Assembly: GCA_949841465.1 (NCBI GenBank)
Contig: CATKZW010000002.1
Span: 37,961 to 101,960 of the forward strand
DNA length: 64,000 nt
Direction of reading: 5' to 3'
Source of the DNA: an uncultured Oscillospiraceae bacterium
GTDB taxonomy: Bacteria; Bacillota; Clostridia; Oscillospirales; Oscillospiraceae
The notes below the pieces were generated by a model. It did not search any database and had not been told where the DNA came from. It worked only from the letters and a program-made list of their open reading frames with translations. Positions within the stretch are counted from its first letter, which is position 1, and every line of letters begins with the position of its first letter. The position numbers and the translations under genes are program-made. Shown piece after piece: positions 4,273-46,850 of this stretch.

Positions 4273-5757
4273 ATGAAACTGGAATTTGAATACGGTCACG
4301 GCCTGATGGCCGCCGACCTGCCCGACAGCACCTACGTGTTCATCCCCGGCGAGACCGTGGCCGATCCCCCCTGCCTGCCCCAGGACTGGGACAGCTTGTA
4401 TAACGCCACTCTGGAGAGTATTCGCAATCCCATCGTCATGCCGCCCCTCAAGGAGCTGGCCGGCCCTGGCAAGACGGTGGTGTTCGTCATCCCGGACATT
4501 GTGAAGGGCGGCTGCCAGCCCACCGCTCACCGGAAGGTGTCCATCCGGGCTTGTCTGGACGAGCTGTACGCCGCCGGGGTGGAGAAAAAGGACATCCTGC
4601 TGCTGTTCTCCAACGGTCTGCATCCTCGGGCCACCGTGGGCGAGATGAAGCAGATTCTGGGCGAGGAGCTGTTCAACGAGTTCTATTGGACCGGCCAGAT
4701 CACCAGCCACGACAGCGAGGACTATGACCATATGGCGGATCTGGGGGTCACCCGCCGGGGGGACCCGGTGCTGATGAACAAGTACGTGTTCGACTGTGAT
4801 ATCCCCATCCTGATCGGCCACACCCAGGGCAATCCCTACGGCGGCTATTCCGGCGGGTACAAGCACTGCGCCACCGGCATTACCCACTGGCGGAGCATTG
4901 CCAGCCACCACGTCCCCGACGTGATGCACCGGGCGGACTTCACCCCGGTGTCCGGCAAGAACCTGATGCGCACCAAGTTCGACGAGATCGGCATGTGGAT
5001 GGAGGAGAAGATGGGCCATCCCTTCTTCTGCTGCGACGCGGTGCTGGACACCTACTCCCGTCAGATCGCCGTCTTCTCCGGCTACGCCAAGGAGATGATG
5101 CCGGTGAGCTGGGAGGTCGCCGACAAGCGCACCTACGTGCTCTGGGCGGAGAAGAAGTACGACGTGATGGTGTTCGGCATGCCCCAGGCCTTCCACTACG
5201 GCGACGGCATGGGCACCAACCCCATCCAGATGATGCAGGCGCTCAGCGCTCAGGTCATCCGCCACAAGCGGGTGATGAAGGACAACTGCGTTATCATCTG
5301 CTCGTCCATCTGCAACGGCTACTTCCACGACGAGCGCTGGCCCTACCTGCGGGAGCTGTACGAGCTGTTCCAGCACGACTATATGAACGTTCTGCCGGAT
5401 ATGAACCGCTACGGCGAGTATTTCGCCACCAACCAGGAGTACATCCGCAAGTACCGCTTCGCCAACGCCTTCCACCCCTTCCACGGCTTTTCCATGATGA
5501 GCTGCGGTCACATCGCCGAGATGAACACCGCCGCCATCTACATCGTAGGGGCCCAGGAGCCGGGCATCGCCCGGGGCATGGGGCTCAAGACCCGGGCCAC
5601 CTTTGAAGAGGCGCTGGCGGACGCAAAGAAAAAGTTTGTGGGGGAGAATCCCAGCATCCTGGCCCTGCCCAAGACCTTCAAGGTGGGCGCGGTCCACCTG
5701 TGCATGAAGGACCAGCCCTACGACGGCACCAACGGCTGCGGCTGCTGCGGGTGCTGA
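4273..5757 (+). CDS. LarA (lactate racemase)/DUF2088 family nickel-pincer-dependent racemase/epimerase
   Basis: PDIV, SHD and GGYSGGYK motifs, with His at +16 from the Lys; SD AAGGAGG upstream of ATG 4273. Confidence 0.8.
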   Translation: MKLEFEYGHGLMAADLPDSTYVFIPGETVADPPCLPQDWDSLYNATLESIRNPIVMPPLKELAGPGKTVVFVIPDIVKGGCQPTAHRKVSIRACLDELYAAGVEKKDILLLFSNGLHPRATVGEMKQILGEELFNEFYWTGQITSHDSEDYDHMADLGVTRRGDPVLMNKYVFDCDIPILIGHTQGNPYGGYSGGYKHCATGITHWRSIASHHVPDVMHRADFTPVSGKNLMRTKFDEIGMWMEEKMGHPFFCCDAVLDTYSRQIAVFSGYAKEMMPVSWEVADKRTYVLWAEKKYDVMVFGMPQAFHYGDGMGTNPIQMMQALSAQVIRHKRVMKDNCVIICSSICNGYFHDERWPYLRELYELFQHDYMNVLPDMNRYGEYFATNQEYIRKYRFANAFHPFHGFSMMSCGHIAEMNTAAIYIVGAQEPGIARGMGLKTRATFEEALADAKKKFVGENPSILALPKTFKVGAVHLCMKDQPYDGTNGCGCCGC

Positions 5758-5837
5758 ACGCCCACCCTGTGAACGGCAAGACGGCCCCGGGCAGGCCCAG
5801 GGGCTGAACATGAGAAAAGAGTAAAGGAAGGTGTCGT

Positions 5838-6668
5838 ATGAGCAAAACAACGCAGGCAAAGAGGCCCTTGACCCAGGCGGAAAAGCGGAATAAGACGATC
5901 AACCGGCTGTGGCTGCTGCTGTCCCTGGTGGTGGCGCTGATCGTGTGGTTCCTGCTGTCCATCGGGGAGAAAACCGGGCGCAGTTTCCCGTTCTTATTCT
6001 CCATTGGCGGCAGGGACTCGGTAATCCAGGGCCTCCAGACCATGATTGAGCGCGACGCGCTGTGGAGCGATTTCGCCAGCAGTATGATCTCGGTGGCCAT
6101 GGGCTTCGGTCTGGGCTTCCTAACCTCCCTGCCCATGGCCTTCCTCATGGCCTGGTACACCCCGGTGCGCAAAATCATCGAGCCCTGGATCAACTTCATC
6201 CGCAACATCCCCGCCCTGGCCTACGCGCCCCTGGTGGTCCTCATGCTGGGCGTGGGGCGTACCCCGTCCGTGGTGCTGATCTGGATCTGCACCTTCATGA
6301 CCATGTGCATCACTATCTTCCACGGCATCCGCAACATCGACAACACCCTGGTCAAGGCGGCCAAGGTGCTGGGCGCCACCGACATGGATATCTTTTTCCG
6401 CATCACCCTGCCCGCCACGGTGCCCTTCATCCTCACCGCCGTGCGCCTGGGCCTGAGCGCGGGCCTGACCACCCTGCTGGCGGCTGAGTCCACCGGCGCA
6501 AGGGCCGGCCTGGGCATGCGCATCCGCACCCTCCAGAGCACCTTTGAGACCAACGCCATGCTGGGCTACATCATCATCATCGGCATCATCGGCACGCTGC
6601 TGAACATCCTTGTGGACTTCATCGAAAGGAGGCTGACCTCATGGCAGGAGAAGCGGGAAGAGGCGTAA
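5838..6668 (+). CDS. ABC transporter permease, NitT/TauT (SsuC/TauC) type
   Basis: Hydrophobic helices, RNIPALAYAPL, the EAA-like loop AAKVLGA, and AAESTGARAGLG. Confidence 0.9.
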   Translation: MSKTTQAKRPLTQAEKRNKTINRLWLLLSLVVALIVWFLLSIGEKTGRSFPFLFSIGGRDSVIQGLQTMIERDALWSDFASSMISVAMGFGLGFLTSLPMAFLMAWYTPVRKIIEPWINFIRNIPALAYAPLVVLMLGVGRTPSVVLIWICTFMTMCITIFHGIRNIDNTLVKAAKVLGATDMDIFFRITLPATVPFILTAVRLGLSAGLTTLLAAESTGARAGLGMRIRTLQSTFETNAMLGYIIIIGIIGTLLNILVDFIERRLTSWQEKREEA

Positions 6669-7435
6669 AAATTCAGATTAAAAACGTCAAGAAAGAATAC
6701 CACGGCGACCACGGCACCACCGTGGCCCTCAACGGCGTCAACCTGGACATCATGGAGAACGAGTTTGTCTGCGTGGTGGGCCCCTCCGGCTGCGGCAAGT
6801 CCACTCTGCTGAACATCCTGGCCGGCCTCCACGAGGCCACCTCCGGCGAGTGCTGCCTGGACGGTGAGCTCATCCACGGCACCGATGTGAAGCGGGGCGT
6901 GGTGTTCCAGCAGTACGCCCTGTTCCCCTGGCAGACCGTGATCCAGAACGTCATGTTTGGTCCCCAGATGAAGCGCCTGCCCAAGACGGAGTGCGAGACC
7001 ATCGCCCGCAAGTACATCAAGATGGTGGGGCTGGAGGACTTTGAAAACTCCTTCCCCAAGGAGCTGTCCGGCGGCATGAAGCAGCGGGTGGCCATCGCCC
7101 GGGCCTACGCCAACAATCCCGAGGTACTGCTCATGGACGAGCCCTTCGGCGCGCTGGACGCCCAGACCCGCGCCCAGCTCCAGACCGAGCTGCTCAAGAC
7201 CTGGGAGGAGGAAAAGAAGACCTGCTTCTTCATCACCCACGACGTGGACGAGGCCGTGCTGCTGGCCCAGCGGGTGGTCATCATGTCCGCCCGGCCCGGG
7301 CGCATCAAGCGGATCGTGGACATCGACATCCCCTATCCCCGGGACCAGGGCACCAAGAGCGACCCCCGGTTCATGGAGCTGAAGGCGGAGATCTGGAACG
7401 AGGTCTACCAGGAGTACCTGGAGGTCCGCAAGTAA
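6641..7435 (+). CDS. ABC transporter ATP-binding protein, NitT/TauT (SsuB/TauB) type; true start may be slightly downstream
   Basis: GPSGCGKST, LSGGMKQR, LLMDEPFGALDAQTR and ITHDVDEA motifs. Confidence 0.92.
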   Translation: MAGEAGRGVKIQIKNVKKEYHGDHGTTVALNGVNLDIMENEFVCVVGPSGCGKSTLLNILAGLHEATSGECCLDGELIHGTDVKRGVVFQQYALFPWQTVIQNVMFGPQMKRLPKTECETIARKYIKMVGLEDFENSFPKELSGGMKQRVAIARAYANNPEVLLMDEPFGALDAQTRAQLQTELLKTWEEEKKTCFFITHDVDEAVLLAQRVVIMSARPGRIKRIVDIDIPYPRDQGTKSDPRFMELKAEIWNEVYQEYLEVRK

Positions 7436-8684: not shown

Positions 8685-10556
8685 ATGGAGATCAACATTA
8701 CATTTGCCCCGGAGGCCGGGGAACCCGTCCGCTTCGCCGCCGGGGAGCTGACCGCCTATCTGGGGCGGATGCTGGCGGAGGAGACGGGGACGCTGTCCGT
8801 CAGCCTGGAGGTCCGTCCGGACCGGGAACCCGGCCTGCCCGACTGGTTCTCCGTAAATCTGGAGGAAAGGGGCGGGACTGTGGCCGGAAACAGCGGGCGG
8901 GCGGTGCTGCTGGGCGTGTACGACTGCCTGCGCCGCCTGGGGTGCCGCTTCCCCGCCCCGGTGAAGGGCTGCGAGACGGTGCCCAGCCTCACCCGACAGG
9001 CGCTGGCCCTCCGGTATGAGCACCGGGCGTCCTTTTACCACCGGGGTGTGTGCATCGAGGGGGCGGACAGCCGGGAAAACCTGCTGGATTTCATCGACTG
9101 GCTGCCTAAGGCGGGATACAACAGCTTTTTCCTGCAATTCAGGACCCCTTACGCCTTTTTCAAGCGCTGGTATCTCCACGAGCGCAACCCCCTGCGAAAG
9201 GCGGAGCCCTTCTCCCCCGCGGACGTGCCGGTCTGGACGGAGGAGGCGGAGGGAGCGCTGAAACGCCGGGGCCTGCTGCTCCACAAGGTGGGCCACGGCT
9301 GGACCGGGGCGGCGCTGGGCTTCGACGCCCAGTCCTGGGACGCGGACCCGGAGCCGCTGTCGGAGGAAAAGCGCCCCCTGGCCGCCCAGGTGGACGGCGT
9401 GCGGGGGCTGTACAAGGGCGTGAGCGCCAACACCAACCTGTGCTTCCGCAACGGGGACGCGGCGGAGGTCTTTGCCGCCCTGGTGGCGGACTACGCCCAG
9501 GCCCACCCCGGCGTGGATTACCTCCACGTCTGGCTGGCGGACACCTATAACAACGTGTGCGAGTGCGAAGGGTGCCGGGCCACCACCCTCTCCGACCAGT
9601 ATGTAGAGCTGCTCAACGAGATCGACCGCCGCCTCACCGCCCAGGGGCTGGATACCAAAATCGTGTTCCTGCTCTACCAGGAGCTGCTGTGGCCGCCGGT
9701 GAAGGCCCGGCTGACCAACCCGGAGCGGTTTGTGCTCATGTTCGCCCCCATCAGCCGCACCTTCGAGCAGTCCTACCCGGCGGTGGGGGAGCTGCCCCCC
9801 ATCCCAGCCTACGAGCGGAATCGGATCGAGCTGCCCACCAGCCTGGAGGAAAACCTGGCCTTCCTCCGGGGCTGGCAGAGGCAGTTCGCGGGGGACAGCT
9901 TTGTCTACGACTACCCCCTGGGCCGGGCCCACTACGGCGATTTCGGCTATGTGAAGCTGGCCAGGGTCGTCAGTGGGGACGTGAAACGGCTGAAACAGCT
10001 GGGCCTCAACGGCTATATCAGCTGCCAGGAGCTGCGCTCGGGCCTGCCCAACTTCTTCCCCAACTATGTGCTGGGCCGGACGTTGATGGACGAGCGCGCC
10101 GATGTGAACGAGCTGATGGCCGAGTATTTCTCCGCCGCCTACGGGGAGGACTGGCCCGCCGTGGCGGATTATCTGTTCCAGCTGTCCGGCCTGAGCAGCA
10201 CCGACTACGTCAACGGCAAGGGACCGCGCACAGACCAAGACATGGCCGCCCGGATGGAGGCCGTCCGGGAGCTGTGCCTGGACTTCACCCCCACCCTGGA
10301 CGCCCACCGCACCCCCCAGGGCTGGCAGACCCCTTTCTGGGCGGCGCTGGACTACCACCGGGCGTATGTGCTCAAGCTGTCCCGAGCCCTGCGGCATCTG
10401 GCCCTGGGCGAGGCGGAGAAGGCGGCGGAGAGCCGGCGGGCTTTCCTGGAGCTGATCTGCGAAAAAGAGCCGGACTTCCAACCCTGGCTGGACGTGTACC
10501 GGGTGCTGGAGGTCACGGAAAACTATACCGGCTTCCGCGGGGGCGCGGAGGCGTGA
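8685..10556 (+). CDS. DUF4838-like putative glycoside hydrolase (cytoplasmic)
   Basis: N-terminal FAAGELTAYL / LLGVYDCLRRLGCRF segment, HVWLADTYNNVCECEGC and FVYDY; no signal peptide; SD AAGGAGG. Confidence 0.65.
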   Translation: MEINITFAPEAGEPVRFAAGELTAYLGRMLAEETGTLSVSLEVRPDREPGLPDWFSVNLEERGGTVAGNSGRAVLLGVYDCLRRLGCRFPAPVKGCETVPSLTRQALALRYEHRASFYHRGVCIEGADSRENLLDFIDWLPKAGYNSFFLQFRTPYAFFKRWYLHERNPLRKAEPFSPADVPVWTEEAEGALKRRGLLLHKVGHGWTGAALGFDAQSWDADPEPLSEEKRPLAAQVDGVRGLYKGVSANTNLCFRNGDAAEVFAALVADYAQAHPGVDYLHVWLADTYNNVCECEGCRATTLSDQYVELLNEIDRRLTAQGLDTKIVFLLYQELLWPPVKARLTNPERFVLMFAPISRTFEQSYPAVGELPPIPAYERNRIELPTSLEENLAFLRGWQRQFAGDSFVYDYPLGRAHYGDFGYVKLARVVSGDVKRLKQLGLNGYISCQELRSGLPNFFPNYVLGRTLMDERADVNELMAEYFSAAYGEDWPAVADYLFQLSGLSSTDYVNGKGPRTDQDMAARMEAVRELCLDFTPTLDAHRTPQGWQTPFWAALDYHRAYVLKLSRALRHLALGEAEKAAESRRAFLELICEKEPDFQPWLDVYRVLEVTENYTGFRGGAEA

Positions 10557-14787: not shown

Positions 14788-14929
14788 GCGTGTCCCGGAA
14801 ACAGAGGAAAAGGCCGGGCTGCCACGTAACCGCCCAACGCTTGACCCACTTTCTGTATGATATCGTGATACTACTTTTCCCTGTTGGTACAATTTCTAAC
14901 TTTGCCAAAGAAAACCAGCGGCTGAATTT

Positions 14930-14958
14930 GAATACGCTTCCAAATCCTGCGGATAATA
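14930..14958 (+). promoter_or_regulatory. Candidate forespore (sigma-F/G-like) promoter of spoVT
   Basis: GAATA(14930-14934)-17 bp-GATAATA(14952-14958), resembling the GHATA...CATAMTA consensus. Confidence 0.4.
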
Positions 14959-15017
14959 CAGATGGAACGATACAAAAAATGCCGTGGGGAGCCGCGGCAG
15001 AACGCAGGAGGAAAACC

Positions 15018-15200
15018 ATGAAAGCGACTGGGATCGTACGCCGCATCGACGACCTGGGCCGGGTGGTGATCCCCAAGGAAATCCGACGCACTATGCGTAT
15101 CCGCGAGGGCGACCCATCTCTGATAACATTGGAATGGTGGAAAAGGTTTTGCGTTGGAATGATGGATCTGTCAAAACGGACAGGATGGAGTTGTACATAG
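15018..15200 (+). pseudogene. spoVT: 5' fragment of stage V sporulation protein T (about 33 codons of the AbrB domain) fused to an unrelated 27-aa tail
   Basis: MKATGIVRRIDDLGRVVIPKEIRRTMRIREGDP matches the SpoVT N-terminus, then similarity is lost abruptly; SD CAGGAGG; no C-terminal GAF half in the window. Confidence 0.85.
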
Positions 15201-15257
15201 TGACGGAAAGATTTGGAGATGCCATGGGCATCCATAACGAGACGATTCGAAGATGGA

Positions 15258-15299
15258 AATGCCGCAATCGCTTTGGGGACAAGCGATTGCGGCGTTTTG
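15258..15299 (+). terminator. Intrinsic terminator downstream of the spoVT fragment
   Basis: Perfect 13-bp stem GCCGCAATCGCTT (15261-15273) / AAGCGATTGCGGC (15281-15293), followed by GTTTTG. Confidence 0.65.
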
Positions 15300-15427
15300 A
15301 CTGTTCCGGTGCGGGGATGGCACAGCTGTGCAGGACATGGGTATTCCGGCGATTTGTCAACAGGTCCAGTTCCTAACGCTGCCCACGGCTTGTTGTAACG
15401 ATTGCGAATATAGCTCTTAACAATCTT

Positions 15428-15462
15428 AAAAACGCCGTCGGCCTGAGGCCGACGGCGTTTTT
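15428..15462. terminator. Bidirectional terminator after ireB
   Basis: AAAAACGCCGTCGGCC-TGA-GGCCGACGGCGTTTTT. Confidence 0.85.
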
Positions 15463-15463
15463 C

Positions 15464-15718
15464 TTACTTCTCGTGAAGATAGCTCTTGAGTAGCACCTGA
15501 AGCAGCTCATCCCGGTCCAGCTGGCGGATGAGGGTGCGGGCGTTGTTGTGGTTGGTGATATAGGTTGGGTCCTCGCTGAGGATATAGCCCACAATCTGGT
15601 TGATGGGGTTATAGCCCTTTTCCCGCAGAGAATTGTAGACGGAGGACAGGATGGCTTTGATCTCCTCGTCCTTGTTCAAGCTGACGCTGAATTTACGTGT
15701 ATAGTCCATGTCATTCAA
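15464..15718 (-). CDS. ireB: IreB/ReoM family regulatory phosphoprotein (UPF0297); start is TTG 15718 or ATG 15709
   Basis: [38 protein letters not shown] is the family signature; Thr phosphosite context DYTRKF. Confidence 0.93.
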
Positions 15719-17992: not shown

Positions 17993-18173
17993 TAACTGCT
18001 TTTAATACACAGGTGGTTATAGAAAGTCTTTCCCACCTGATACAGTTAAGTATAGCAGATTTGCACAAAGAACGCAAGAGGAAATTTTCAAATCATGACA
18101 ACTGCCCCGGGCGTATCACATCAGTCCCGGCCCGGGCGGCCGAAATTTTGACGAAGTGGAGCGTGATTGGCAA

Positions 18174-21926
<3,753 letters not shown>

Positions 21927-21943: not shown

Positions 21944-25858
<3,915 letters not shown>

Positions 25859-37328: not shown

Positions 37329-37365
37329 AATCGGCCCTTTCCCACCGGGAAAGGGCCGATTTTTA
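37329..37365. terminator. Bidirectional terminator
   Basis: AATCGGCCCTTTCCC-ACC-GGGAAAGGGCCGATT followed by TTT, between convergent genes. Confidence 0.85.
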
Positions 37366-38076
37366 TGCTTCGGTCTGAATTACCGTCAGTTGGCCGCGGC
37401 CCACCGCCCCCCGCTCCCACAGCAGGGCCAGCGCCTGGTCCGCACAATCCTCGGGGAGCTCCAGCTCCGGCAGCCGCAGGACGAGCCCATCCAGTGAGCC
37501 CCCAGGGTACAGCTCCAGGCGCCGGCCCCACCGTCCCCCGCCGGGGCCAAAGGCCGCCGTCACGTCCGCCCCCGCTGCCGGAGGCGTCACCGGCAGGCCG
37601 AACCTTGCCTGGAGGTAACGGGCATAGTCCAGCCCGCCGGGCACGTCGATGAGCAGGACCCGCACCTGGGGGCAAAGCCGCTCCGCCGCCCCCTCAAGCT
37701 CAGGACACAGCCGGGGCGCGGACAGGGCCACCCGCCCCCGGCGGCGGGGTATTCCCGCCCTGTCCAGCGCCCCCAGGGCCAGCACATCCGCCGTCCCCCG
37801 CCACAGGGGGACCGGGTCCACCGGGCGCAGCAGAGCCAGCCGGTCCCCGTAGGGGAAGTCCGAACCCAGAATCACTCGGCCCGCCCCCGCCCGGACCAGG
37901 GCCCGCTCCGCCTTTCGGAGCCGCCGCCGGAGCCTCCAGGGGGCCAGGCCATCCGGCTCATGGACCACCGCCCGCAGGATGCGCAGCGGCCCCAAAGCCG
38001 TCTCCTCCAGCTGGAGGCGTCCCTTTTCCCGCACCAGCGCCAGCTGCCCTACCATGTACATCACCTCATGGACCAA
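37363..38076 (-). CDS. Hypothetical protein (start uncertain, 38076 or 38061 region)
   Basis: 237-aa ORF filling the gap between terminators, with plausible codon usage; no motif recognised. Confidence 0.6.
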   Translation of the reverse strand: MVHEVMYMVGQLALVREKGRLQLEETALGPLRILRAVVHEPDGLAPWRLRRRLRKAERALVRAGAGRVILGSDFPYGDRLALLRPVDPVPLWRGTADVLALGALDRAGIPRRRGRVALSAPRLCPELEGAAERLCPQVRVLLIDVPGGLDYARYLQARFGLPVTPPAAGADVTAAFGPGGGRWGRRLELYPGGSLDGLVLRLPELELPEDCADQALALLWERGAVGRGQLTVIQTEA

Positions 38077-38160
38077 TATGCTTCAATGCCGGCAAACATG
38101 CGCCGGACAAAGCTGTTGACGGAGTATCACATGATCTGACCCTATGCGCAGGAAAACGGC

Positions 38161-38196
38161 AGCGGTGCCGGGGAGGTGTCCCCGGCGCCGCTTTTT
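38161..38196. terminator. Terminator-like hairpin after the C39-like gene
   Basis: AGCGGTGCCGGGA / TCCCGGCGCCGCT followed by TTTT. Confidence 0.65.
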
Positions 38197-38215
38197 GCTC
38201 TGATCAGCGGTTACG

Positions 38216-39223
38216 TTACCGCTGAAAGCTGATGTAGCCGTAATGGGGGGTGGCGTAATCGGTGAGGCCGAAGGAATATCCCATGGCGGTCAGGCTTTTG
38301 GCCTGGGAGGCCATGGAGCCGGAGCCATTCCTGGCGGGGTCCACGGCCAGGTAGCCCCCCTGGCTGTCCCGGCCCACAATCACGATCCAGTGGTGCCGGG
38401 TGGAGGAGGAGTGGACGGCGGCCACGATGGGGAGCCCGTCGGCCAGGGCGGCGTCTATGGCGGCCTGCAGCTCACCCAGGCTGCCCACATAGCTGTCCGT
38501 CTTGTAGGCGGTCCGATAGACATTCCCGTCGGAGCCTGTGTACAGCTCCCCCTCCAGGCTCCGGCACAGCACGCCGCTGTAGATCATGTCGGCGGTGGCG
38601 TACCGGTTTCCGCCCACAATGAGATTGACCGCCATGGCCGCCGAGGTGGCCTTGCAGGTGTTCGTGTCCTGCCGGAGGAAGGACACCCGGCTCAGGTTGG
38701 CGGCCAGCACCCCGCCGGACGCAGCGGAGGCGGCGGATCGGCCCGGCTTCAGCAGCCTGCCCTGCTTTAACAGCTGGAGCAGGCTGGTGTTTTGGGCCGC
38801 TGAACCGGAATAGCCCGCAATCCCGTTGGCGGAGGCTATCTGGGCGCGGTAGGAGTAGCTGGGGTCTGCGCCCAGGGCGCTCAGCGCGGCCGCGATGGAG
38901 GGCGATTCCCCGGTATAGGCGGGAAAGAAGGGGGAATCGTCCTCCGCCGGGGCGGCGGGGTCGATTAGCACGCCCTTCTTGAGCAGCTCCAGCATCCGGG
39001 TGTTCTGGGCGGCGGTGCCGCGGTAGTCAGTGATGCCGTTGGCGGCGGCGATTTTTGCCCGGCTGGAGTAGGATGGGTCGGCACCCAGAGCGTCCAGCGC
39101 GGCGGCGATAGACGCCGTGCTTCCGGTGTACTGTGGGAAATAGGAGGCCGCGCCGGCAGCGGCGGTGAGTGTGGGGAGCGTCAGGCACAGTGCCAGTGCC
39201 AGCGCGGCAAGTCGTTTCTTCAT
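38216..39223 (-). CDS. Secreted protein: two DUF3597-like cell-wall-binding repeats plus a C39-like cysteine peptidase domain
   Basis: Signal peptide; repeat SIAAAL.ALGADPSYS.RA.IA.ANGI..Y.G.AAQNT twice; QDTNTCKATSAAMA, HHWIVIVG and DPA. Confidence 0.75.
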   Translation of the reverse strand: MKKRLAALALALCLTLPTLTAAAGAASYFPQYTGSTASIAAALDALGADPSYSSRAKIAAANGITDYRGTAAQNTRMLELLKKGVLIDPAAPAEDDSPFFPAYTGESPSIAAALSALGADPSYSYRAQIASANGIAGYSGSAAQNTSLLQLLKQGRLLKPGRSAASAASGGVLAANLSRVSFLRQDTNTCKATSAAMAVNLIVGGNRYATADMIYSGVLCRSLEGELYTGSDGNVYRTAYKTDSYVGSLGELQAAIDAALADGLPIVAAVHSSSTRHHWIVIVGRDSQGGYLAVDPARNGSGSMASQAKSLTAMGYSFGLTDYATPHYGYISFQR

Positions 39224-39427
39224 GGTAAAGACCTTCCTTTCTGTCCGTAGCGTGGGTAGGTATGGGCGGTGGGGCGGTCTGAGGGATAGTGGAGCTCCCG
39301 CCGGCGGGAACTCCATTATCCCTGCAATCTATCAATTCGTCCATAAAAAGGGTTGGCTTTACCGTTTTTCATAAATTGCCCGCATGTAAATATTGGAACG
39401 GCCATTCCGCCGCTTCTGTACTATGGT

Positions 39428-41503
39428 TTAGTTGAACAGCTCCGCATTTTCCTCAAACAGCTCCCGCACCTTCCGTTTCAGCAGCCGGTGGCTGGATTTT
39501 TTCAGCTCCGGGTCAGCGGCAATCAGCGCCTCCGCCGCCTCCCGCGCCTCCTTGAGCAGCTCCATGTCGGCGGCAAAGTCCGCCACCTTCAGCTGGGGCA
39601 GGCCGTGCTGGCGCTTGCCGAAGAAGTCGCCGGGGCCCCGCAGGCGCAGGTCCTCCTCCGCGATTTGGAAGCCGTCGTTGGTGGCGCACAGCGCCCGCAG
39701 GCGCTCCCGAGCCGTCTCGCTGCGGCTGGAGGTGACCAGCACGCACCAGCTCTGGTGCTTCCCCCGGCCCACCCGGCCCCGGAGCTGGTGGAGCTGGCTT
39801 AACCCGAACCGCTCCGCGTTCTCCACCACCATCAGGGAGGCGTTGGGCACGTCCACTCCCACCTCAATGACGGTGGTGGACACCAGCACGTCCAGCTCTC
39901 CCGCCGTGAAGGCGGCCATCACGTCCTCCTTCTCCCTGGATTTCAGCTTTCCGTGGACGAAGCCCACCCGCAGGTCCGGGAACACCCTTTCCTGCAATTC
40001 TTTGGCGTAGGCGGTGACGGCTTTCAGGTCCATGGCCGGGCCGTCCTCCCAGCCGCCGCCGTTCTCCTCCACCGAGGGGCACACGATGTATACCTGCCGT
40101 CCCTCGCCCACCTGCTTGCGGACAAAGCCGTACATCCTCTGCCGCTTATCCTCCCCGATGGCGAAGGTGGACACCGGGGTCCGCCCTGGCGGCAGCTCGT
40201 CCATGATGGACACGTCCAAATCGCCGTAGATGATGAGAGCCAGCGTCCGGGGGATGGGGGTGGCGGACATGACCAGCACGTGGGGGGGGACCGCCCCGCC
40301 CTTTTCCGCCAGCGCCGCCCGCTGGGCCACGCCGAACCGGTGCTGCTCGTCGGCAATGACCAGGCCCAGATCCCGGTACTCCACACCCTGGGAGAACAGG
40401 GCGTGGGTGCCCACAATCAGGTCGATCTCCCCCGCGGCCAGGGCGGCCAGCAGGGCTTTTTTCTCTTTCCCCTTCACCGAGGCGGTGAGCAGGGCCACCC
40501 GCACCCCGGCGGGGGTGAGCAGGGCGTCCATGGTCCGGGCATGCTGCTCCGCCAGCAGCTCGGTGGGAGCCATCAGGGCGCACTGCACCCCGTTTTTCAC
40601 CGCCGCCCAGGCCCCGAAGGCGGCCACCGCCGTCTTGCCGGAGCCCACGTCGCCCTGGACCAGCCGGTTCATGGCCTTGCCCGAACGCAGGTCGGCGGCG
40701 ATGTCCTCCATGGCCCGCCGCTGGGCGTTGGTGGGGGCGAAGGGCAGCAGGGCGGCGAACTCCTCCACCGCGCCCTCTAAGGGCCGTCCCTCCCCGGCCG
40801 AGCGCCGGTCCTTGAGCTGAGCCAGCCCGCAGGTGAGGATGAACAGCTCCTCGAATACCAGCCGCCGCCGGGCCATGGCCAGCTCCTCAAAGGAGGGCGG
40901 GTAGTGGATGTTCTTCCGGGCAAACTGGGTCTGGCAAAGCTGGTGATCCTTGCGCACCTGGGCGGGCAGGACCTCGGGCAGACCGTCCAGGCACTCGTCC
41001 ACCGCCCGGCGGGTGAGCCCGGCCAGCAGGTTATTGGAGATCCCCGCCGTCAGAGGGTATACCGGCATGATGAGCCCCGTGGACCGGGCCGACCCCTCCC
41101 GCTCAAAGACGGGGTTGGTCATGGCGGCCGTCTGCCCCTGGCGCTCCACCGTGCCGTAGAACACGTAGGTCTGTCCGGTGCACATGACCTCCCGGATATA
41201 GTCCTGGTTGAAAAAGGTGATGTTCAGCGTGCCGGTGTCGTCCACCGCCCGCACCTTCACCAGGGTCAGCCCCCGGCGCACAAAGCTCACCCTGGGCGGG
41301 GCCGCCACCATGGCGGCCACACAGCAGGGCCGGTCCTCCGGCGCGTCCGCCACGGCATGGCATTCCCGCCGGTCCTCATACCGCTGGGGCAGATGGTCCA
41401 GGGTGTCCCCCAGGGTGTGCAGGCCCAGCTTCTCCAGTTTTTTCCCCCTGGCGGGTCCCACCCCCGGCAGGTCGGTCAGGGGGGTCTCTCGTGTCAGCGG
41501 CAT
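39428..41503 (-). CDS. recG: ATP-dependent DNA helicase RecG
   Basis: LVQGDVGSGKT, ADEQHRFGV, MSATPIPRTL, VIEVGVDVPNA and RFGLSQLHQLRGRVGRG. Confidence 0.98.
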   Translation of the reverse strand: MPLTRETPLTDLPGVGPARGKKLEKLGLHTLGDTLDHLPQRYEDRRECHAVADAPEDRPCCVAAMVAAPPRVSFVRRGLTLVKVRAVDDTGTLNITFFNQDYIREVMCTGQTYVFYGTVERQGQTAAMTNPVFEREGSARSTGLIMPVYPLTAGISNNLLAGLTRRAVDECLDGLPEVLPAQVRKDHQLCQTQFARKNIHYPPSFEELAMARRRLVFEELFILTCGLAQLKDRRSAGEGRPLEGAVEEFAALLPFAPTNAQRRAMEDIAADLRSGKAMNRLVQGDVGSGKTAVAAFGAWAAVKNGVQCALMAPTELLAEQHARTMDALLTPAGVRVALLTASVKGKEKKALLAALAAGEIDLIVGTHALFSQGVEYRDLGLVIADEQHRFGVAQRAALAEKGGAVPPHVLVMSATPIPRTLALIIYGDLDVSIMDELPPGRTPVSTFAIGEDKRQRMYGFVRKQVGEGRQVYIVCPSVEENGGGWEDGPAMDLKAVTAYAKELQERVFPDLRVGFVHGKLKSREKEDVMAAFTAGELDVLVSTTVIEVGVDVPNASLMVVENAERFGLSQLHQLRGRVGRGKHQSWCVLVTSSRSETARERLRALCATNDGFQIAEEDLRLRGPGDFFGKRQHGLPQLKVADFAADMELLKEAREAAEALIAADPELKKSSHRLLKRKVRELFEENAELFN

Positions 41504-41666
41504 GGTTCAATCACCTCCGGCGGCCTTGCAGGCTCCCGCTGTATTTTTCAACTTGGTTCACTATACCACATTTTCCCCGTCGAAAACAATCCCGGAGGGG
41601 ATTTTTCCCTTTCCGGCTGGTATAAATTGTATCGCCCCCGTCCACAATATGACCGGAGGTGTTGTT

Positions 41667-42443
41667 ATGAACAACAAACGAACATGGATCGAAAAGCTAA
41701 GCGATTTCATCTCAGGAAAGGGTTTCTATCTTGTGGTACTCATCTGTGTGGCCGCCATTGCGCTGTCCGGCTATTATCTGGTCCAAGGGGTGCGCGGCGG
41801 TCTGGACCGGACCCTGGACCAGCCGGTGAGCGGTTCCGCCGCCATCCCGGACACGCCCTCCGCCGCCCCAACTCCGCGGCCCTCCGTCAAGCCCTCTGCT
41901 TCCCCCGCCGTGTCCGCCCAGGTCTCCGCCTCCCCGAGCCCCTCGGCAGCTCCTTCCGCCATGCCTACGCCTTCTCCGGCGCCCTCCGCCGCGCCCGCAT
42001 CCACTCCGGCGCCCTCTCTGGCCCCCGCGCCCCTGGTCTTCACCTGGCCGGTGAAGGGCACGGTGGAGGCCGGGTTCGCCGTGGAGGTGCTGGCCTATAA
42101 CGTGACCATGGGCGACTGGCGCACCCACAGCGGCCTGGACATCTCCGCCGCCTTGGGTACCCAGGTGCTGTCCGCCGCCGCCGGCACGGTGAAGGCGGTG
42201 TATGAGGACGACCTGCTGGGCACCGTGGTGGAGATCGACCACGGGGACGAGCTGGTGAGCCAGTACGCCAACCTGGCCGCCGTGCCCACGGTGTCCGTGG
42301 GGGATCAGGTGGGCACCGGGACGGTGATCGGTTCCGTAGGGGCCACCGCCGCCGCCGAGAGCGGCCAGACCGCCCATCTCCACTTCGCCATGTACCGGAG
42401 CGGAAGCCCCGTGGACCCCGCCGAATACCTGCCGGAGCAGTGA
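41667..42443 (+). CDS. Membrane-anchored M23 family peptidase (SpoIIQ-like)
   Basis: N-terminal KGFYLVVLIC TM helix, Pro/Ser linker, WRTHSGLDI (HxxxD) and HLHFAM (HxH); SD GGAGGTG. Confidence 0.85.
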   Translation: MNNKRTWIEKLSDFISGKGFYLVVLICVAAIALSGYYLVQGVRGGLDRTLDQPVSGSAAIPDTPSAAPTPRPSVKPSASPAVSAQVSASPSPSAAPSAMPTPSPAPSAAPASTPAPSLAPAPLVFTWPVKGTVEAGFAVEVLAYNVTMGDWRTHSGLDISAALGTQVLSAAAGTVKAVYEDDLLGTVVEIDHGDELVSQYANLAAVPTVSVGDQVGTGTVIGSVGATAAAESGQTAHLHFAMYRSGSPVDPAEYLPEQ

Positions 42444-42502
42444 GGCGCTTTCCCGGGAAATCGAACGGCTATTTCACGCAAAGCGTATCCGTTCGGAGCG
42501 CA

Positions 42503-42537
42503 GAGAAGCCCGGCCCCTTTGGGGCCGGGCTTCTCTC
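42503..42537. terminator. Bidirectional terminator
   Basis: GAGAAGCCCGGCCCC-TTT-GGGGCCGGGCTTCTC. Confidence 0.85.
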
Positions 42538-42552
42538 ATAAAAACGGGTGAA

Positions 42553-43062
42553 TTACAGCTTCAGGGAGGGGGCGGAGTAGGTCCGGCCGGCCAGTTCACT
42601 GTTGAGCATGTACAGAGCCTTGGCGTCGCCGCCGAACAGCTCCATCTTGCGGACCATGCCGGAGGAATTGACCTCCTCCTCGCCCTGCTCCTTGACGAAC
42701 CAGTCCAGGAACTGCACGGTGCGGTGATCCTTTGCCTCCAGGGCGGCGTCATAGATGGCGTTGATGAGGCCGGTGACGTACTGCTCGTGGGCGTGGGCGG
42801 CCTTCAGGGGGTCCATCAGCTCCTTGTACTCCTTATCGGGCTTGGCAATGGCGCCCAGGGTGACGGTCTGGTCGTTGTTGTGCAGGTACTTGTAGATGAG
42901 CATGGCGTGGTCCTGCTCCTCCTTGGCCTGGATCTCGTACCAGTTGGCGAAGCCGTCCAGCCCCTGGTTGGCGTAGAAGTTGGCCATATCCAGATACAAA
43001 TAGGCGGAGTACAGCTCCTTGTTCACCTGATCGTTCAGCAGTTCGGCGACTTTTTTGTCCAT
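42553..43062 (-). CDS. ftnA: Non-heme ferritin
   Basis: QVNKELYSAYLY, EEQDHA, HEQYVT and FLDWFVKEQGEEE ferroxidase motifs. Confidence 0.94.
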   Translation of the reverse strand: MDKKVAELLNDQVNKELYSAYLYLDMANFYANQGLDGFANWYEIQAKEEQDHAMLIYKYLHNNDQTVTLGAIAKPDKEYKELMDPLKAAHAHEQYVTGLINAIYDAALEAKDHRTVQFLDWFVKEQGEEEVNSSGMVRKMELFGGDAKALYMLNSELAGRTYSAPSLKL

Positions 43063-43109
43063 AATGGAAAACTCTCCTCGTTTCATTTAGATGTGCGCTC
43101 AGCGGCGCG

Positions 43110-43149
43110 TTTCCATGGAAAAGTATATCACGTTTTTTCCCGGTGTCAA
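43110..43149 (-). promoter_or_regulatory. Ferritin promoter with an adjacent palindrome
   Basis: TTGACA(43149-43144)-16 bp-TATACT(43127-43122) with extended TG; TTTCCATGGAAA at 43110-43121. Confidence 0.65.
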
Positions 43150-44816
43150 CCGCTTCCCGCCGCCTGGAGCAGCGCCTGGTTCACGTCGGCCGCGATGGCC
43201 AGCATGGCTTCCGCCGGCACCTTGCGGACCTGCCGGTCATAGGTGTACAGGCCGTTGGTCTCTCCCTCCACGTCGCTGAGCTGGGTATAGATGCATCCGC
43301 ACAGCCCGTTGGGGATGGAGGGCAGCACCATATCGCCGTACAGCCCCTGGATGCGCTCCATAAGCTCCTCCTTGGACTGGGATTGCTCACCGTAGCCATA
43401 GTTTTTCCGTTTCAGGGTGACGTGGCCCTCCACCCGGCGGGAAAAGCCGCCGCATTCGCTGAGCAGCAGGAATTTCCCCGGCCTGTTCCCCTCCAGCACC
43501 CGGCTGTGGAAGTAGACGTGCTCGCTCTGCACGTCGCTCTCCTTCTGGGCAAACCAGCCGGACGTGCTCATCAAAAACCGGGTGGGGTCGGCGGGCTTGA
43601 GCAGGCGGTAGATGCGGTCGGAGTCGTACTGCCCCCAGCCCTCGTTGAAGATGGTCCAGCCTACGATGCAGGGGTGGCTGTAGAGGTGGGCGATGGTTTC
43701 CAGGCAGTGGCGCTCGAAGAAGGACTTGCGCAGCATGCCGCCGCCCCGGCCCAGGTCGTTTCGTTTTTTGCTGACAAAGGTGGGGATGACGGTGTCCCGG
43801 ATGTAATCGTACTCTCCCGAGTTCACCATGTCCTGGATCACCAGCATGCCCAGCCGGTCGCAGGCGTGGTAGAAGGCCTCCGGCTCGATTTTGATGTGCT
43901 TGCGCAGGGTGTTGAAGCCCAGCTCCTTCATCCGCAGCACGTCCCGCTCGTACTCCTCCGGGTCACGGGGGAGGAACAGGCCGTCCTCGAAATAGCCCTG
44001 GTCCAGCACGCCGTGGAGGAACACCGGCTTCCCGTTCAGGCACAGGCGGGGGCGGCCGTTCAGCTCCCGGGTGTCCACGGTGCGCAGGGCGAAGTAGCTC
44101 TCCACCTTGTCGGTGGAGGTGGCGACGGTCATGGTGTACAGATACGGGTCCTCCGGGGTCCACAGGTGGGGCTCCGGTATGTCCAGGCGCAGGGGCCCCT
44201 TTCCGGCGGCGGTGAGGATATGGCCGTTCTCCAGGGGGACGGTCACGGCATAATCCTCCCCAGCCGTGTCCGCCTGGATGGTGACGCCGGTCAGGTCCGG
44301 GGTCAGGCGCAGGGCGGTCACCGACCCCCGTTCCGGCACGGCCTCCAGCCACACCGGCTGCCAGATGCCGGACACCGGGGTATACCACATCCCATGGGGG
44401 CGCTTATTCTGCTTGCCGTAGGGATAGTCGTGGGACAGGGTATCGACGGCCTTCACTTCCAGCCGGTTTTCACCCGGCCTCAGCACGTCGGTGATATCCA
44501 CCGAGAAGGGCAGGTATCCCCCCTCGTGGCGGGCCAGGGGGACGCCGTTGACGATGACCTCGGCCACCTGGTCCACCGCCCCGAAGTGGAGCCATGCCCG
44601 GCGGCCCTGGGGCAGGAAGCCCGCAGGGAGGGCGAAAGCGGTCTTGTACCGCAGCACGTCCCCTACCGTCCCCCGCCAGGCGGCCAGGGGGGCCTGGGGC
44701 GGCCAGGGGGTGCGGATGGGCCTGCCGTTCAGCGTCCAGCCCTGATTCAATGGGAAAAAACTGTCCCGCCGGAGCTGTGGGCGGGGGTAATAACGGTCCC
44801 AGCTTCTCTGCTCCAT
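43146..44816 (-). CDS. Glycoside hydrolase family 2
   Basis: YPRPQLRR, LHFGAVD, HGVLDQGY, FNTLRKHIK, WTIFNEGWGQ (acid/base) and LSECGG (nucleophile). Confidence 0.9.
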   Translation of the reverse strand: MEQRSWDRYYPRPQLRRDSFFPLNQGWTLNGRPIRTPWPPQAPLAAWRGTVGDVLRYKTAFALPAGFLPQGRRAWLHFGAVDQVAEVIVNGVPLARHEGGYLPFSVDITDVLRPGENRLEVKAVDTLSHDYPYGKQNKRPHGMWYTPVSGIWQPVWLEAVPERGSVTALRLTPDLTGVTIQADTAGEDYAVTVPLENGHILTAAGKGPLRLDIPEPHLWTPEDPYLYTMTVATSTDKVESYFALRTVDTRELNGRPRLCLNGKPVFLHGVLDQGYFEDGLFLPRDPEEYERDVLRMKELGFNTLRKHIKIEPEAFYHACDRLGMLVIQDMVNSGEYDYIRDTVIPTFVSKKRNDLGRGGGMLRKSFFERHCLETIAHLYSHPCIVGWTIFNEGWGQYDSDRIYRLLKPADPTRFLMSTSGWFAQKESDVQSEHVYFHSRVLEGNRPGKFLLLSECGGFSRRVEGHVTLKRKNYGYGEQSQSKEELMERIQGLYGDMVLPSIPNGLCGCIYTQLSDVEGETNGLYTYDRQVRKVPAEAMLAIAADVNQALLQAAGSG

Positions 44817-44923
44817 GCCGATCTCCTCTTTTCCTTCCGTTTGTGTTATATTTTACGGCAGAGCGTTCTGGCTTACCGGGCGGGCATCTTGTCAGGCGCC
44901 GCGTCCATTCATAAACTATTTTA

Positions 44924-44952
44924 ATTATATCACATTCGGAAGAAAATGGCAA
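44924..44952 (-). promoter_or_regulatory. Sigma-A promoter of the GH2 gene
   Basis: TTGCCA(44952-44947)-17 bp-TATAAT(44929-44924) with extended TG. Confidence 0.7.
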
Positions 44953-45111
44953 CGGTGGTTTCGGCACTTTTGCGGCGGATGTGCCGCTTGCCAGCGAGAG
45001 AGTGCCTACAGAAAAAACGGCACAGCAGAGCTTCGGCTTGTTTGGCGCAGCCTCCCAGCAGTTCTTTGTGACCTCCGGCCCAGCCGGAGGCTTTCGCCGT
45101 CCGGACAGGGC

Positions 45112-45155
45112 AAAATGAAAACCCTCCGGCGTAAACCGGAGGGCCTTCATTTTTT
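45112..45155. terminator. Bidirectional terminator in the GH2-dac intergenic region
   Basis: AAAATGAA..CCCTCCGG / CCGGAGGG..TTCATTTT. Confidence 0.75.
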
Positions 45156-45340
45156 GAGAAAAGAGAGAGGGAGGAGATTGTCTGGTTTTTTGTTCCTGAC
45201 GTGATTATAATACCAGACTCCCCCGGGGAAATGTTGGACGATTTGAGAACCTTTTGTGAAGAAATCGTGAACGTTGTGAAATTTTCGTGAACAGCCGGAG
45301 AAATGGGGCAAAACGCGGCAAAAATCGACCAAAATCGCCC

Positions 45341-46705
45341 TCAGCGCCGCCCACGGTAATGGTAACCGGACCGCCGTCCGCCCCCGGTGCGGCTGTACCG
45401 CCGCCGGGCCTTCCGCCGGGGCAGCACCACCGTCACCAGCACCACCAGCGCCAGAAGGCCCAACGAGCCAAGAATCACCAGCACCTTCACCCACCACTGG
45501 GACCAGTAGTACTGAATCTGCTGGATCGTGTACAGGAATTCGGACCGCTCCACGCTGTCCGCCGCCACCATGTCCAGGGTGCCGTAGGTCTCCCCCTGGT
45601 ACTCCAGGGTGACGGTGCCCAGCTTATCCCCGGCGGCGATGGGGGCCTCCACCGACTTAGGCAGGTCGAACTTCAAATCCACCTGCTTTGGGTCGAAGTC
45701 GGAGGGCATGGTGGCCTGGATCTCGCCCACGGGCTGGGCCAGCACGTAGTCCCCCTCGTCGGACAGGGTGACGGGCACCTCCCGGATGACGTTCTCTGTG
45801 TCCTGGTCCAGCAGGGTGATCCGGTGGAAGTTGTCGAAGGCCCACTCCAGCAACCGCTTGCTCTCGGAGAAGGAGAACTTGTGCCCGGTGCCCTCCTCGT
45901 CCTCGGTGCCCAGCACCACGCAGTAGAAGGTGCGGCCCAGTTCGTCCACGGCAGCGGAGGCCAGGCAGCGCCCCGCCTCGCCGGTGTAGCCGGTCTTGAT
46001 GCCGATGGCCTTGGAATATATGTAGCCGCCGCCGGAGTAGAAGCCGGTGAGCAGGCCGTTGGAGCTGAAGATGGTGCGCTCCGGCTGCAAATTAGTGGCC
46101 GGGAGGGTGTGGGAGGCAGAACGGACGATGGTGCGGAAGGTCTCGTTCTGCATGGCGGCGTAGGCCATCAGATAGATATCATAAGCGGTGGTATAGTGCT
46201 CCGGGTCGTGGAGGCCGTGGGGGTTGGCGAAGTGGGTGTCCTGCATGCCCAGCTCCTGGGCCTTGGCATTCATCCTGGCTACGAATTCCGCCGAGGTGCC
46301 CGCCACCGCCTCCGACAGGATGTTGCACGCCTCATTGCCGGAGGGCAGCAGGTCGCAGTACAGCAGGTCCAGCACCGACAGCGTCTCCCCCGCCTTGATG
46401 CCCGCCGTGGAGCTGTTCCAGGGCAGGTCCACCGCCTGGGCGGAGGCGGTGACCATGGTGTTCAGGGAGATTTCGCCTGACTCCACCGCCTCCAGTACCA
46501 CCAGGGAGGTCATGATCTTGGTGATGGAGGCGGGGTAGCGCCGCTCACGGGCGTGGAAATCGTAGAGGACCTCCTGGCTGTCCCCGTCCACGATGATAAC
46601 GGCCGCAGCCTGGGGCTGCGGGTCCTCCAGGGCCAGGGCGGGGCAGGTGAGGGACAGGGCCATGAGCCCCGCCAGGAGCAGAGAAAGAAATCGATATTTT
46701 TTCAT
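45341..46705 (-). CDS. D-alanyl-D-alanine carboxypeptidase (peptidase S11) with a C-terminal membrane anchor
   Basis: PASITKIM (SxxK), SGN, FANPHGL and KTG motifs; signal peptide; C-terminal TM plus basic tail. Confidence 0.93.
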   Translation of the reverse strand: MKKYRFLSLLLAGLMALSLTCPALALEDPQPQAAAVIIVDGDSQEVLYDFHARERRYPASITKIMTSLVVLEAVESGEISLNTMVTASAQAVDLPWNSSTAGIKAGETLSVLDLLYCDLLPSGNEACNILSEAVAGTSAEFVARMNAKAQELGMQDTHFANPHGLHDPEHYTTAYDIYLMAYAAMQNETFRTIVRSASHTLPATNLQPERTIFSSNGLLTGFYSGGGYIYSKAIGIKTGYTGEAGRCLASAAVDELGRTFYCVVLGTEDEEGTGHKFSFSESKRLLEWAFDNFHRITLLDQDTENVIREVPVTLSDEGDYVLAQPVGEIQATMPSDFDPKQVDLKFDLPKSVEAPIAAGDKLGTVTLEYQGETYGTLDMVAADSVERSEFLYTIQQIQYYWSQWWVKVLVILGSLGLLALVVLVTVVLPRRKARRRYSRTGGGRRSGYHYRGRR

Positions 46706-46850
46706 AGGAATCTCCCATAATCTATGATATAATAGTAGGCGCCGCTTTGAGGCGGCCTGTTTCAAGTGTAAGTTTATATGATTATATCAGAAAGTTTTCC
46801 CCTGCGCAACTGGGGAAAACAGGGTTTTGGACGAATTTGGAGGGGGCAGA

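Follow-up and report, generated by a model that had tools for sequence, protein, structure and literature searches.

A forespore gene, spoVT, split by a large serine recombinase element in an Oscillospiraceae genome, with a scrambled, strain-specific geometry

The stretch of DNA analyzed here (the window, 64 kb) corresponds to C2:37961-101960 of a draft genome of 136 contigs and 3.09 Mb (G000), from an uncultured Oscillospiraceae bacterium. It contains the beginning of the sporulation gene spoVT, interrupted after codon 33. The rest of the gene is found intact on a different contig, C16, fused in frame to the gene of a large serine recombinase (LSR). Judging from their sequences, the open reading frame (ORF) in the window and the C16 locus are the attL/attR pair of an LSR mobile element inserted in spoVT after codon 33. 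The LSR-split spoVT is real, its scrambled geometry is strain-specific, and rejoining by inversion is no more than a possibility. The best explanation, held with moderate confidence, is that the window carries the attL of such an element, that the locus was scrambled by later rearrangements, and that the gene may be rejoined in the forespore. The features involved are given below; positions are those of the window, unless a contig is named.

14928 to 14958, plus strand: predicted sigma-G/F-type promoter of spoVT, with -35 TTGAATAC, a 17-nt spacer and -10 GATAATA (GAATA at 14930-14934, GATAATA at 14952-14958)
15006 to 15011, plus strand: Shine-Dalgarno sequence AGGAGG, read from the sequence and conserved in relatives
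15018 to 15116, plus strand: spoVT 5' half, codons 1-33, AbrB-type DNA-binding N-terminus, identified by tblastn, TIGR02851 and PF04014
15018 to 15200, plus strand: chimeric ORF of 60 codons (183 bp), 33 from spoVT and 27 from the element
15108 to 15115 (C2:53068-53075), plus strand: 8-bp common core GGCGACCC of the predicted attL, after which the SpoVT similarity stops; the same 8 bp lie at the predicted attR, C16:32685-32692
15116 to 15205, plus strand: P' arm, a conserved stretch forming the element's left end; it shares about 77% identity with the corresponding end of the G002 element and aligns with the attP-form contig L048
C16, from 30969: LSR of 575 aa (PF00239 Resolvase, PF07508 Recombinase, PF13408 Zn_ribbon_recom), ending at attR
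C16:32694-33125: spoVT 3' half, codons 34-177 (the 3' two-thirds of the gene), intact, fused in frame to the LSR; TIGR02851 positions 33-180, 122 bits

The 5' half was recognized by several comparisons. Its first 33 residues match B. subtilis SpoVT at 32 positions (tblastn against the 3.09-Mb genome, E 3.9e-15), and positions 1-35 of the NCBIfam model TIGR02851 are matched with an E-value of 1.6e-18 (67 bits), together with Pfam PF04014. Promoter and 5' half, 211 nt in all, are 89-92% identical to the intact spoVT loci of close relatives; the fragment is therefore the orthologous spoVT, and the abrB paralogue present on C31 was ruled out as its identity. In alignments, the promoter is kept in G016, G004 and G015, being found upstream of the intact gene in relatives, while the variants GCATA/GTATA ... 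CATAATA/GATACTA are seen in the more distant G011, G002 and G019. The initial annotation had described a Shine-Dalgarno sequence, a sigma-F/G-like promoter and about 33 SpoVT codons followed by an abrupt loss of similarity, and all of these were confirmed. Translation of the chimeric ORF gives MKATGIVRRIDDLGRVVIPKEIRRTMRIREGDP up to the break and SLITLEWW... beyond it; the element-coded tail, SLITLEWWKRFCVGMMDLSKRTGWSCT, is followed by a stop. In an excised element, the P' arm would supply this same tail (SLITLEWWKRFCVGMMDLSKRTGWSCT, then the stop) as the final 27 codons of the recombinase ORF.

The missing part of the gene, residues 28-177 with the GAF-like domain, was located by a tblastn search of the whole genome at C16:32676-33122 (E 4.5e-25), beside the LSR gene. 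The same type of search detected no 3' half anywhere in the 64-kb window, and no intact spoVT copy elsewhere in the assembly. The absence of the 3' part, as reported in the initial annotation, is thus true for the window only. The statement that no recombinase is adjacent holds for the window and for contig C2, where no LSR paralogue was found either, and does not hold on C16, where the ORF starting at position 30969 reads without stops into the spoVT 3' half, encoding a fused protein of 719 aa. The idea that no recombinase is involved is consequently to be discarded, since the LSR gene abuts the 3' half and runs in frame into it.

The predicted attL reads ...CGCGAGGGCGACCC followed by ATCTCTGATAAC..., and the predicted attR ...GTTGTCAGTAACGGCGACCC followed by CTTGGAGATT..., both including the core GGCGACCC. 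The P and P' arms are imperfect inverted copies of each other (GTTGTCAG and CTGATAAC), and each of the two sites is single-copy in the genome, when searched for with up to 4-5 mismatches. The attB site was predicted by joining CGCGAGGGCGACCC to CTTGGAGATT (...ATGCGTATCCGCGAGGGCGACCC followed by CTTGGAGATTTACACC...), and attP by joining GTCAGTAACGGCGACCC to ATCTCTGATAAC (...GTGTTGTCAGTAACGGCGACCC followed by ATCTCTGATAACATTGG...). The SpoVT protein joined in silico is 177 aa long, and differs from the intact SpoVT P0258 at 5 positions (172/177 residues the same). The full-length TIGR02851 model is covered in two pieces, of 67 and 122 bits; intact relatives score 184-233 bits, also under the 235.9-bit cut-off. 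No inactivating mutation was found in the 5' half, the 3' half, the promoter, the att arms, the LSR gene or the small gene upstream of it, described below as s. Both halves being intact and joining in frame, the split reflects a site-specific recombination system rather than a decayed pseudogene. The ENA assembly of ERR3199531 shows the same arrangement as C16. A 177-aa protein found in ENA (P0129) is an otherwise normal SpoVT with FFNDTATT in place of the eight residues RIREGDPL around the att site, possibly a scar of recombination or an artefact of the assembly.

The recombinase belongs to a large family. Over 100 protein clusters are related to it at 84-92% identity, nearly all of them 719-738 aa long with PF15714 (SpoVT_C) fused in frame. 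The relatives found in species-representative genomes (one genome per species) are 439, and the best 80 of these were taken as family loci for further comparison. SpoVT_C comes directly after the LSR in 72 of these 80; carriers among the loci include Oscillibacter, Dysosmobacter, Flavonifractor, Pseudoflavonifractor, Lawsonibacter, Intestinimonas and Flintibacter muris DSM 110149. The family also has cultured carriers, such as F. muris DSM 110149, Dysosmobacter segnis BX15, Pseudoflavonifractor sp. An85 and Flavonifractor sp. An100. The comparison of the breakpoint across Oscillospiraceae, suggested in the initial annotation, shows spoVT cut at the same position throughout this LSR family. In a genome of the same genus, Pseudoflavonifractor sp. 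An85 (G002), both halves lie on one contig and on the same strand, 17.3 kb apart; only about 90 bp after the core, plus the end formed by s and the recombinase gene, are shared between this element and the one in G000. The family element is normally a simple contiguous cassette of more than 10 kb, with its sites in direct orientation.

For 70 fused ORFs, the mean distance was 0.21 for the LSR part and 0.42 for the adjoining host part, with a Pearson r of 0.36. The much lower divergence of the LSR, decoupled from that of the host half next to it, indicates that the family moves horizontally. In a few recombinase proteins SpoVT_C is absent, and the reading frame instead crosses attP and enters the element's left end: in P0099, encoded on a 20-kb Logan contig which continues into element cargo, ...NGDP is followed by SQITLEWWERFCFGMMG. 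The occurrence of such attP-form ORFs implies that excised or circular forms exist in nature, or at least in metagenomes. Cargo genes in the relatives are of the RhuM, PAPS-reductase and YhcG types. A prophage nature was considered and rejected, as only 3 relatives were found in 2.9 million IMG/VR contigs, against the 439 in cellular genomes, and the cargo resembles that of genomic islands rather than of phages.

Other layouts are found within the family. In contig L104 (corresponding to G003:C75; positions 5014-6821), from a metagenome-assembled genome of the same genus, the recombinase gene is on the plus strand, and the spoVT 5' half that comes after it is on the minus strand (...ATCAATAACGG joined to GTCGCCCTCGCGGATGCGCAT...). 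Since a P arm is here joined to a reversed B arm, non-canonical geometries recur in the family. In L068 (about 11666), L073 (about 1900) and L128 (about 11700), the recombinase P arm is joined to unrelated DNA instead of spoVT (e.g. ...GTTATCAGTGACGGCGAT joined to CGCCTCCG...), which suggests secondary sites of integration. At least 20 further loci in G000 encode LSR paralogues, an unusually high load for a 3-Mb genome. No publication on spoVT with an intervening element or a serine recombinase was found in the literature searched, and the family of spoVT-splitting LSRs is apparently undescribed, albeit recurrent.

A small gene of about 87 codons, called s, lies directly upstream of the recombinase gene and is conserved across the family; no match to it was found in Pfam, PHROG or NCBIfam. 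It is preceded, in 20 family members including G000 (C16:30420-30490 and 19 further loci), by the invariant arrangement G[ACT]ATA, 17-18 nt, (G)GAAA(A/C)TA, which resembles the overlapping sigma-F/sigma-G consensus of C. difficile (PMC3789822). The LSR gene is preceded, in about half of the aligned family members and in G000, by TTGCTT, 17 nt and TGATACAAT, to be read as an extended -10 promoter of the sigma-A type. All the parts that the proposed recombination would need, namely attL, attR, the LSR, s and the promoters, are intact in G000.

A five-gene cluster, at C16:20073-30183, is found directly beside s, and encodes DUF4132 (1175 aa), a 546-aa protein, VWA_CoxE, DUF5682 and an AAA_5 ATPase. 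The cluster, which may be either cargo of the element or chromosomal, is missing from the 80 family loci, and distant versions of it are present in other contexts in G004, G007 and G015. On the other side, downstream of the spoVT 3' half, two orphan ORFs are followed by core DNA that relatives carry elsewhere.

The surroundings of the predicted attL depart from the canonical cassette, in that the halves lie on different contigs and that only 289 bp of element DNA are left after the core (15116-15405), followed by the ireB-rpoBC region. The features to the right of the P' arm are the following.

15206 to 15405, plus strand: distal part of the 289-bp stub, not conserved in other family members
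15406 to 15463, no strand assigned: rearrangement junction, then the ireB terminator hairpin; the DNA to the right is collinear with the ireB loci of relatives
15464 to 15709, minus strand: ireB (Pfam PF06135, E 7.5e-37; synteny with relatives)
39414 to 44816 (C2:82776 to 77374), minus strand: native downstream neighbours of spoVT (GH2, ferritin, M23 peptidase, RecG), 83% identical at the nucleotide level, reversed, to the DNA directly after the intact spoVT in L134, and likewise for G016 and L036

The stub holds a 63-codon ORF (15185-15376) and a hairpin at 15261-15293. The ORF has only sub-threshold helix-turn-helix matches in Pfam (HTH_28, E 0.021, below the cut-off), and no homologue of it, or of the distal 200 bp or so, was found in the genome, the 80 family loci, a phage collection or PHROGs. 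Homology to the ireB loci of G016, G015 and G007, as detected by blastn, begins at C2:53366-53387 (window 15406). From here on the core block runs in its ancestral order from ireB through an NlpC/P60 gene to rpoB (18156-21926) and rpoC (21944-25858). The claim that the DNA past the break is core genome, with ireB and rpoBC, is thus sustained by synteny with relatives. In G016, G015, G007 and most public contigs with an identical IreB, the neighbour of ireB on the stub side is a DUF4358/transglutaminase gene, which in G000 sits on contig C7.

Among the closest genomes, the order spoVT, GH2, ferritin, M23, RecG, EF-G is found both in L134, where spoVT is intact, and in the element-bearing L036 and G016. 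In the window, 24-30 kb separate the spoVT 5' half from the GH2-RecG block, which lies to its right and points the other way; nothing of spoVT is left next to GH2. It forms part of a minus-strand block of about 9 kb (37363-46765), set among plus-strand neighbours and made of RecG, M23, ferritin, GH2 and two flanking genes; the RecG-GH2 part (39414-44816) is detached from EF-G and spoVT, its flanks in relatives. The whole block looks like a local inversion accompanied by translocation.

Neither att site retains the native spoVT context on either of its sides, and at least two or three rearrangements therefore separate G000 from the canonical state; models with a single inversion or a single translocation were tried, and each fails at one junction or more. 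Repeats and inverted repeats at the junctions are chance matches only, and neither an insertion sequence nor a second att-like site was found there. None of the 80 family loci has the scrambled geometry.

Three other records, GCA_948615075.1 and the Logan assemblies of ERR3199551 and ERR3199605, contain the stretch from TauE through the spoVT 5' half and the stub to ireB with 100% identity. The recurrence of the junction in these three records and of the C16 arrangement in a further assembly, along with the lack of any repeat of the stub elsewhere in the genome, indicates that the layout is real and not chimeric. In L039 (6200-6420; ENA ERR3199531_4775), a sequence 99.84% identical to the rpoB-ireB region of G000 switches allele in the last 45 nt or so of ireB, beyond which the DNA is unrelated; a mosaic at the strain level or a chimera made by co-assembly, in either case at the same hot spot, would account for it.

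The interrupted gene is a forespore gene: spoVT is under sigma-F/G control in C. difficile and B. subtilis (PMC3789822), its promoter here is of the sigma-G/F type, and in C. difficile SpoVT is needed for heat-resistant spores (PMC3789822). Among other sporulation genes of G000, spoIVA is intact, and sigG is also split by an LSR. Residues 1 to about 95 of SigG (ending ...RFSTYGVPM) are encoded at C4:96298-96579, on the minus strand, and the remainder (starting with IVGEIRRYLRDN..., so that ...STYGVPM would be continued by IVGEIRRY...) at C19:11430-11921, on the plus strand. A second LSR gene, on the plus strand of C19 from about position 10000, ends at C19:11406, 24 bp before the sigG 3' half. 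The two sigG sites share the core GTGCCGATG, and their arms contain a perfect inverted repeat, GTTTCAACTTCGGAA and TTCCGAAGTTGAAAC.

A working scheme can be proposed from these elements. The LSR would be made constitutively, from the sigma-A-type promoter, and s would be made in the forespore, from its sigma-F/G-type promoter; the product of s may be the directionality factor, or control it. Recombination between attL and attR would then reassemble spoVT in the forespore; later on, the LSR by itself could undo the joining and return the gene to the split state. The outcome in G000 would be set by the relative orientation of the sites: if inverted, a large core segment would flip; if direct, a circle carrying rpoBC would be looped out.

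Several observations weigh against the rejoining part of this explanation. The role of s as directionality factor is putative, being suggested by its conservation, its position and its promoter-like motif. The exact 177-aa joined SpoVT and the exact 602-aa attP-form LSR are absent from a set of 15 billion proteins, in which the fused 719-aa form is present; the missing joined forms are, in turn, weak evidence, because assemblies drop rare variants. Contigs C2 and C16 were neither ordered nor oriented by contig-end overlaps (none for C2, C16, C7, C4, C19 and C21), by GC skew, which is flat, weak and gene-driven, or by synteny with 30 relatives and close public contigs, where blocks within this genus reach 5-10 kb only. 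The insertion and the rearrangement may be recent, being seen in one strain only and with 100% identity, so the intact halves need not reflect selection. Finally, a strain in which spoVT and sigG are both split may not sporulate at all.

The last two points lead to the most serious alternative, possible although clearly less probable than the favoured explanation, that the insertion and the rearrangements inactivated spoVT permanently, the strain being asporogenous or forming defective spores, and the intact parts merely reflecting recency. Besides the single-strain geometry with its 100% identity and the split sigG, the lack of any joined form on record agrees with such a dead end, as do the horizontal mobility of the LSR family, by which insertions can be young, and the three family members at other sites, which landed where no gene needs rebuilding. 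It has to be reconciled, however, with the absence of even one inactivating mutation in the halves, promoter, att arms, s and LSR, and with an intact spoIVA. Moreover, hundreds of species carry the family at this very codon with intact 3' halves, which fits poorly with simple gene killing, unless losing sporulation carries no cost, or is even selected for, in the gut.

A programmed, reversible long-range inversion, in which attL and attR would be inverted and the LSR, with a directionality factor, would flip the core region (ireB-rpoBC) in the forespore and flip it back after germination, is considered unlikely. In its favour, both att sites are canonical and intact, attL borders on core chromosome, the forespore-type promoter precedes s and the sigma-A-type promoter precedes the LSR gene; of the two geometries, moreover, this is the one keeping essential genes on the chromosome. 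Yet overlaps, skew and synteny gave no orientation of C2 relative to C16, and neither flank matches the native spoVT context, so that the layout looks like the product of several unrelated rearrangements rather than a designed switch. The geometry, furthermore, is strain-specific and occurs in none of the 80 family loci, and no attB or attP form of the strain is on record.

A low probability is likewise assigned to the direct-orientation geometry, where the sites would be direct repeats across a large arc of the chromosome: either a non-replicating rpoBC circle would be looped out, or spoVT would be rebuilt on the circle, and reintegration would be needed before growth. By reasoning on the ends, the join of stub and ireB links a right end to a left end, as expected from a translocation-type exchange rather than from a single inversion. 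On the other hand, looping out essential genes in the germ-line compartment would be hazardous, and nothing on record supports an rpoBC circle. The complete scheme, a reversible germ-line rearrangement at each sporulation, with s switching the LSR, the rpoBC-bearing segment flipping or looping out, a second LSR doing likewise for sigG, and the split state being restored after germination and inherited, is regarded as very unlikely.

An assembly artefact, with C2 being a chimera of the spoVT 5' end and the ireB region, as the initial annotation had allowed for, has a negligible probability: a draft in 136 contigs and the divergence of the related contig L039 right after ireB might suggest it, but it is rejected on the three other records, GCA_948615075.1 and Logan ERR3199551 and ERR3199605, which carry the junction with 100% identity from TauE to ireB, on the stub having no repeat elsewhere in the genome to cause a misjoin, and on the recurrence of the C16 arrangement in ERR3199531.

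In the cases described in the literature searched, irreversible excision is harmless because the interrupted genes belong to the disposable mother cell (PMC4191935). A mobile family aimed at one codon of the forespore gene spoVT, with a second LSR element in sigG, departs from this rule. It would follow that these elements are excised from the inherited chromosome and then returned to it, or else that they serve as heritable sporulation off-switches in gut Oscillospiraceae. Since its att sites can be separated by core chromosome, the recombinase is a potential driver of large inversions or loop-outs. As a by-product, well-defined att sites and their recombinase make a ready-made integrase toolkit.

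The claim of the initial annotation that known intervening elements sit in mother-cell genes holds for every case described in the literature searched, none of them in spoVT. The features shared with the class of skin, SPbeta and gin are an interrupted sporulation coding sequence, an LSR at one end beside an att site, a shared core with inverted-repeat arms, and an ORF restored in silico. The skin element in sigK has its LSR at one end (SpoIVCA in B. subtilis; in C. difficile skinCd, recombinase CD1231 with directionality factor CD1234) and interrupts the frame of a sporulation regulator, as observed here; a short common att core, precise joining which restores the ORF, and the expectation of a small separate factor for direction and timing are further points of likeness (PMC5025042). 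Unlike skin, the target here is a forespore gene (sigma-F/G), the recombinase ORF spans the att site, so that integration swaps its C-terminal tail for SpoVT_C, and the candidate control gene s has a motif of the forespore, not of the mother-cell type. The element in G000, moreover, is not a contiguous cassette, and is known from sequence alone.

In B. subtilis, SPbeta interrupts spsM and relies on the integrase SprA and on SprB. Its LSR is constitutive, and a separately regulated small factor triggers the excision which rebuilds spsM (PMC4191935, PMC5499854); the same division of labour, with a sporulation gene being rebuilt, is proposed here. The sprB gene, coding for the directionality factor, has its own sporulation-specific promoter, of the mother-cell type. 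SPbeta excision is specific to the mother cell, and the spore genome keeps its prophage (PMC4191935), whereas the spoVT element would have to act in the inherited chromosome, or be restored to it; the spoVT family is also rarely viral (3 viral against 439 cellular relatives). The gin element in gerE of B. cereus ATCC 10987 is, as here, a non-phage intervening element with a serine recombinase, splitting a small sporulation regulator; gerE, however, is a mother-cell gene, gin is contiguous, and its rearrangement was shown experimentally (PMC5595907). A precedent for inversion, when fragments lie on opposite strands, is the restoration of nif genes in Calothrix sp. NIES-4101, for which PMC11249958 describes both excisions and inversions, by serine and tyrosine recombinases. 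Heterocysts, however, are a terminal cell type, neither the recombinases nor the host are related to those described here, and inversion at spoVT is only a possibility.

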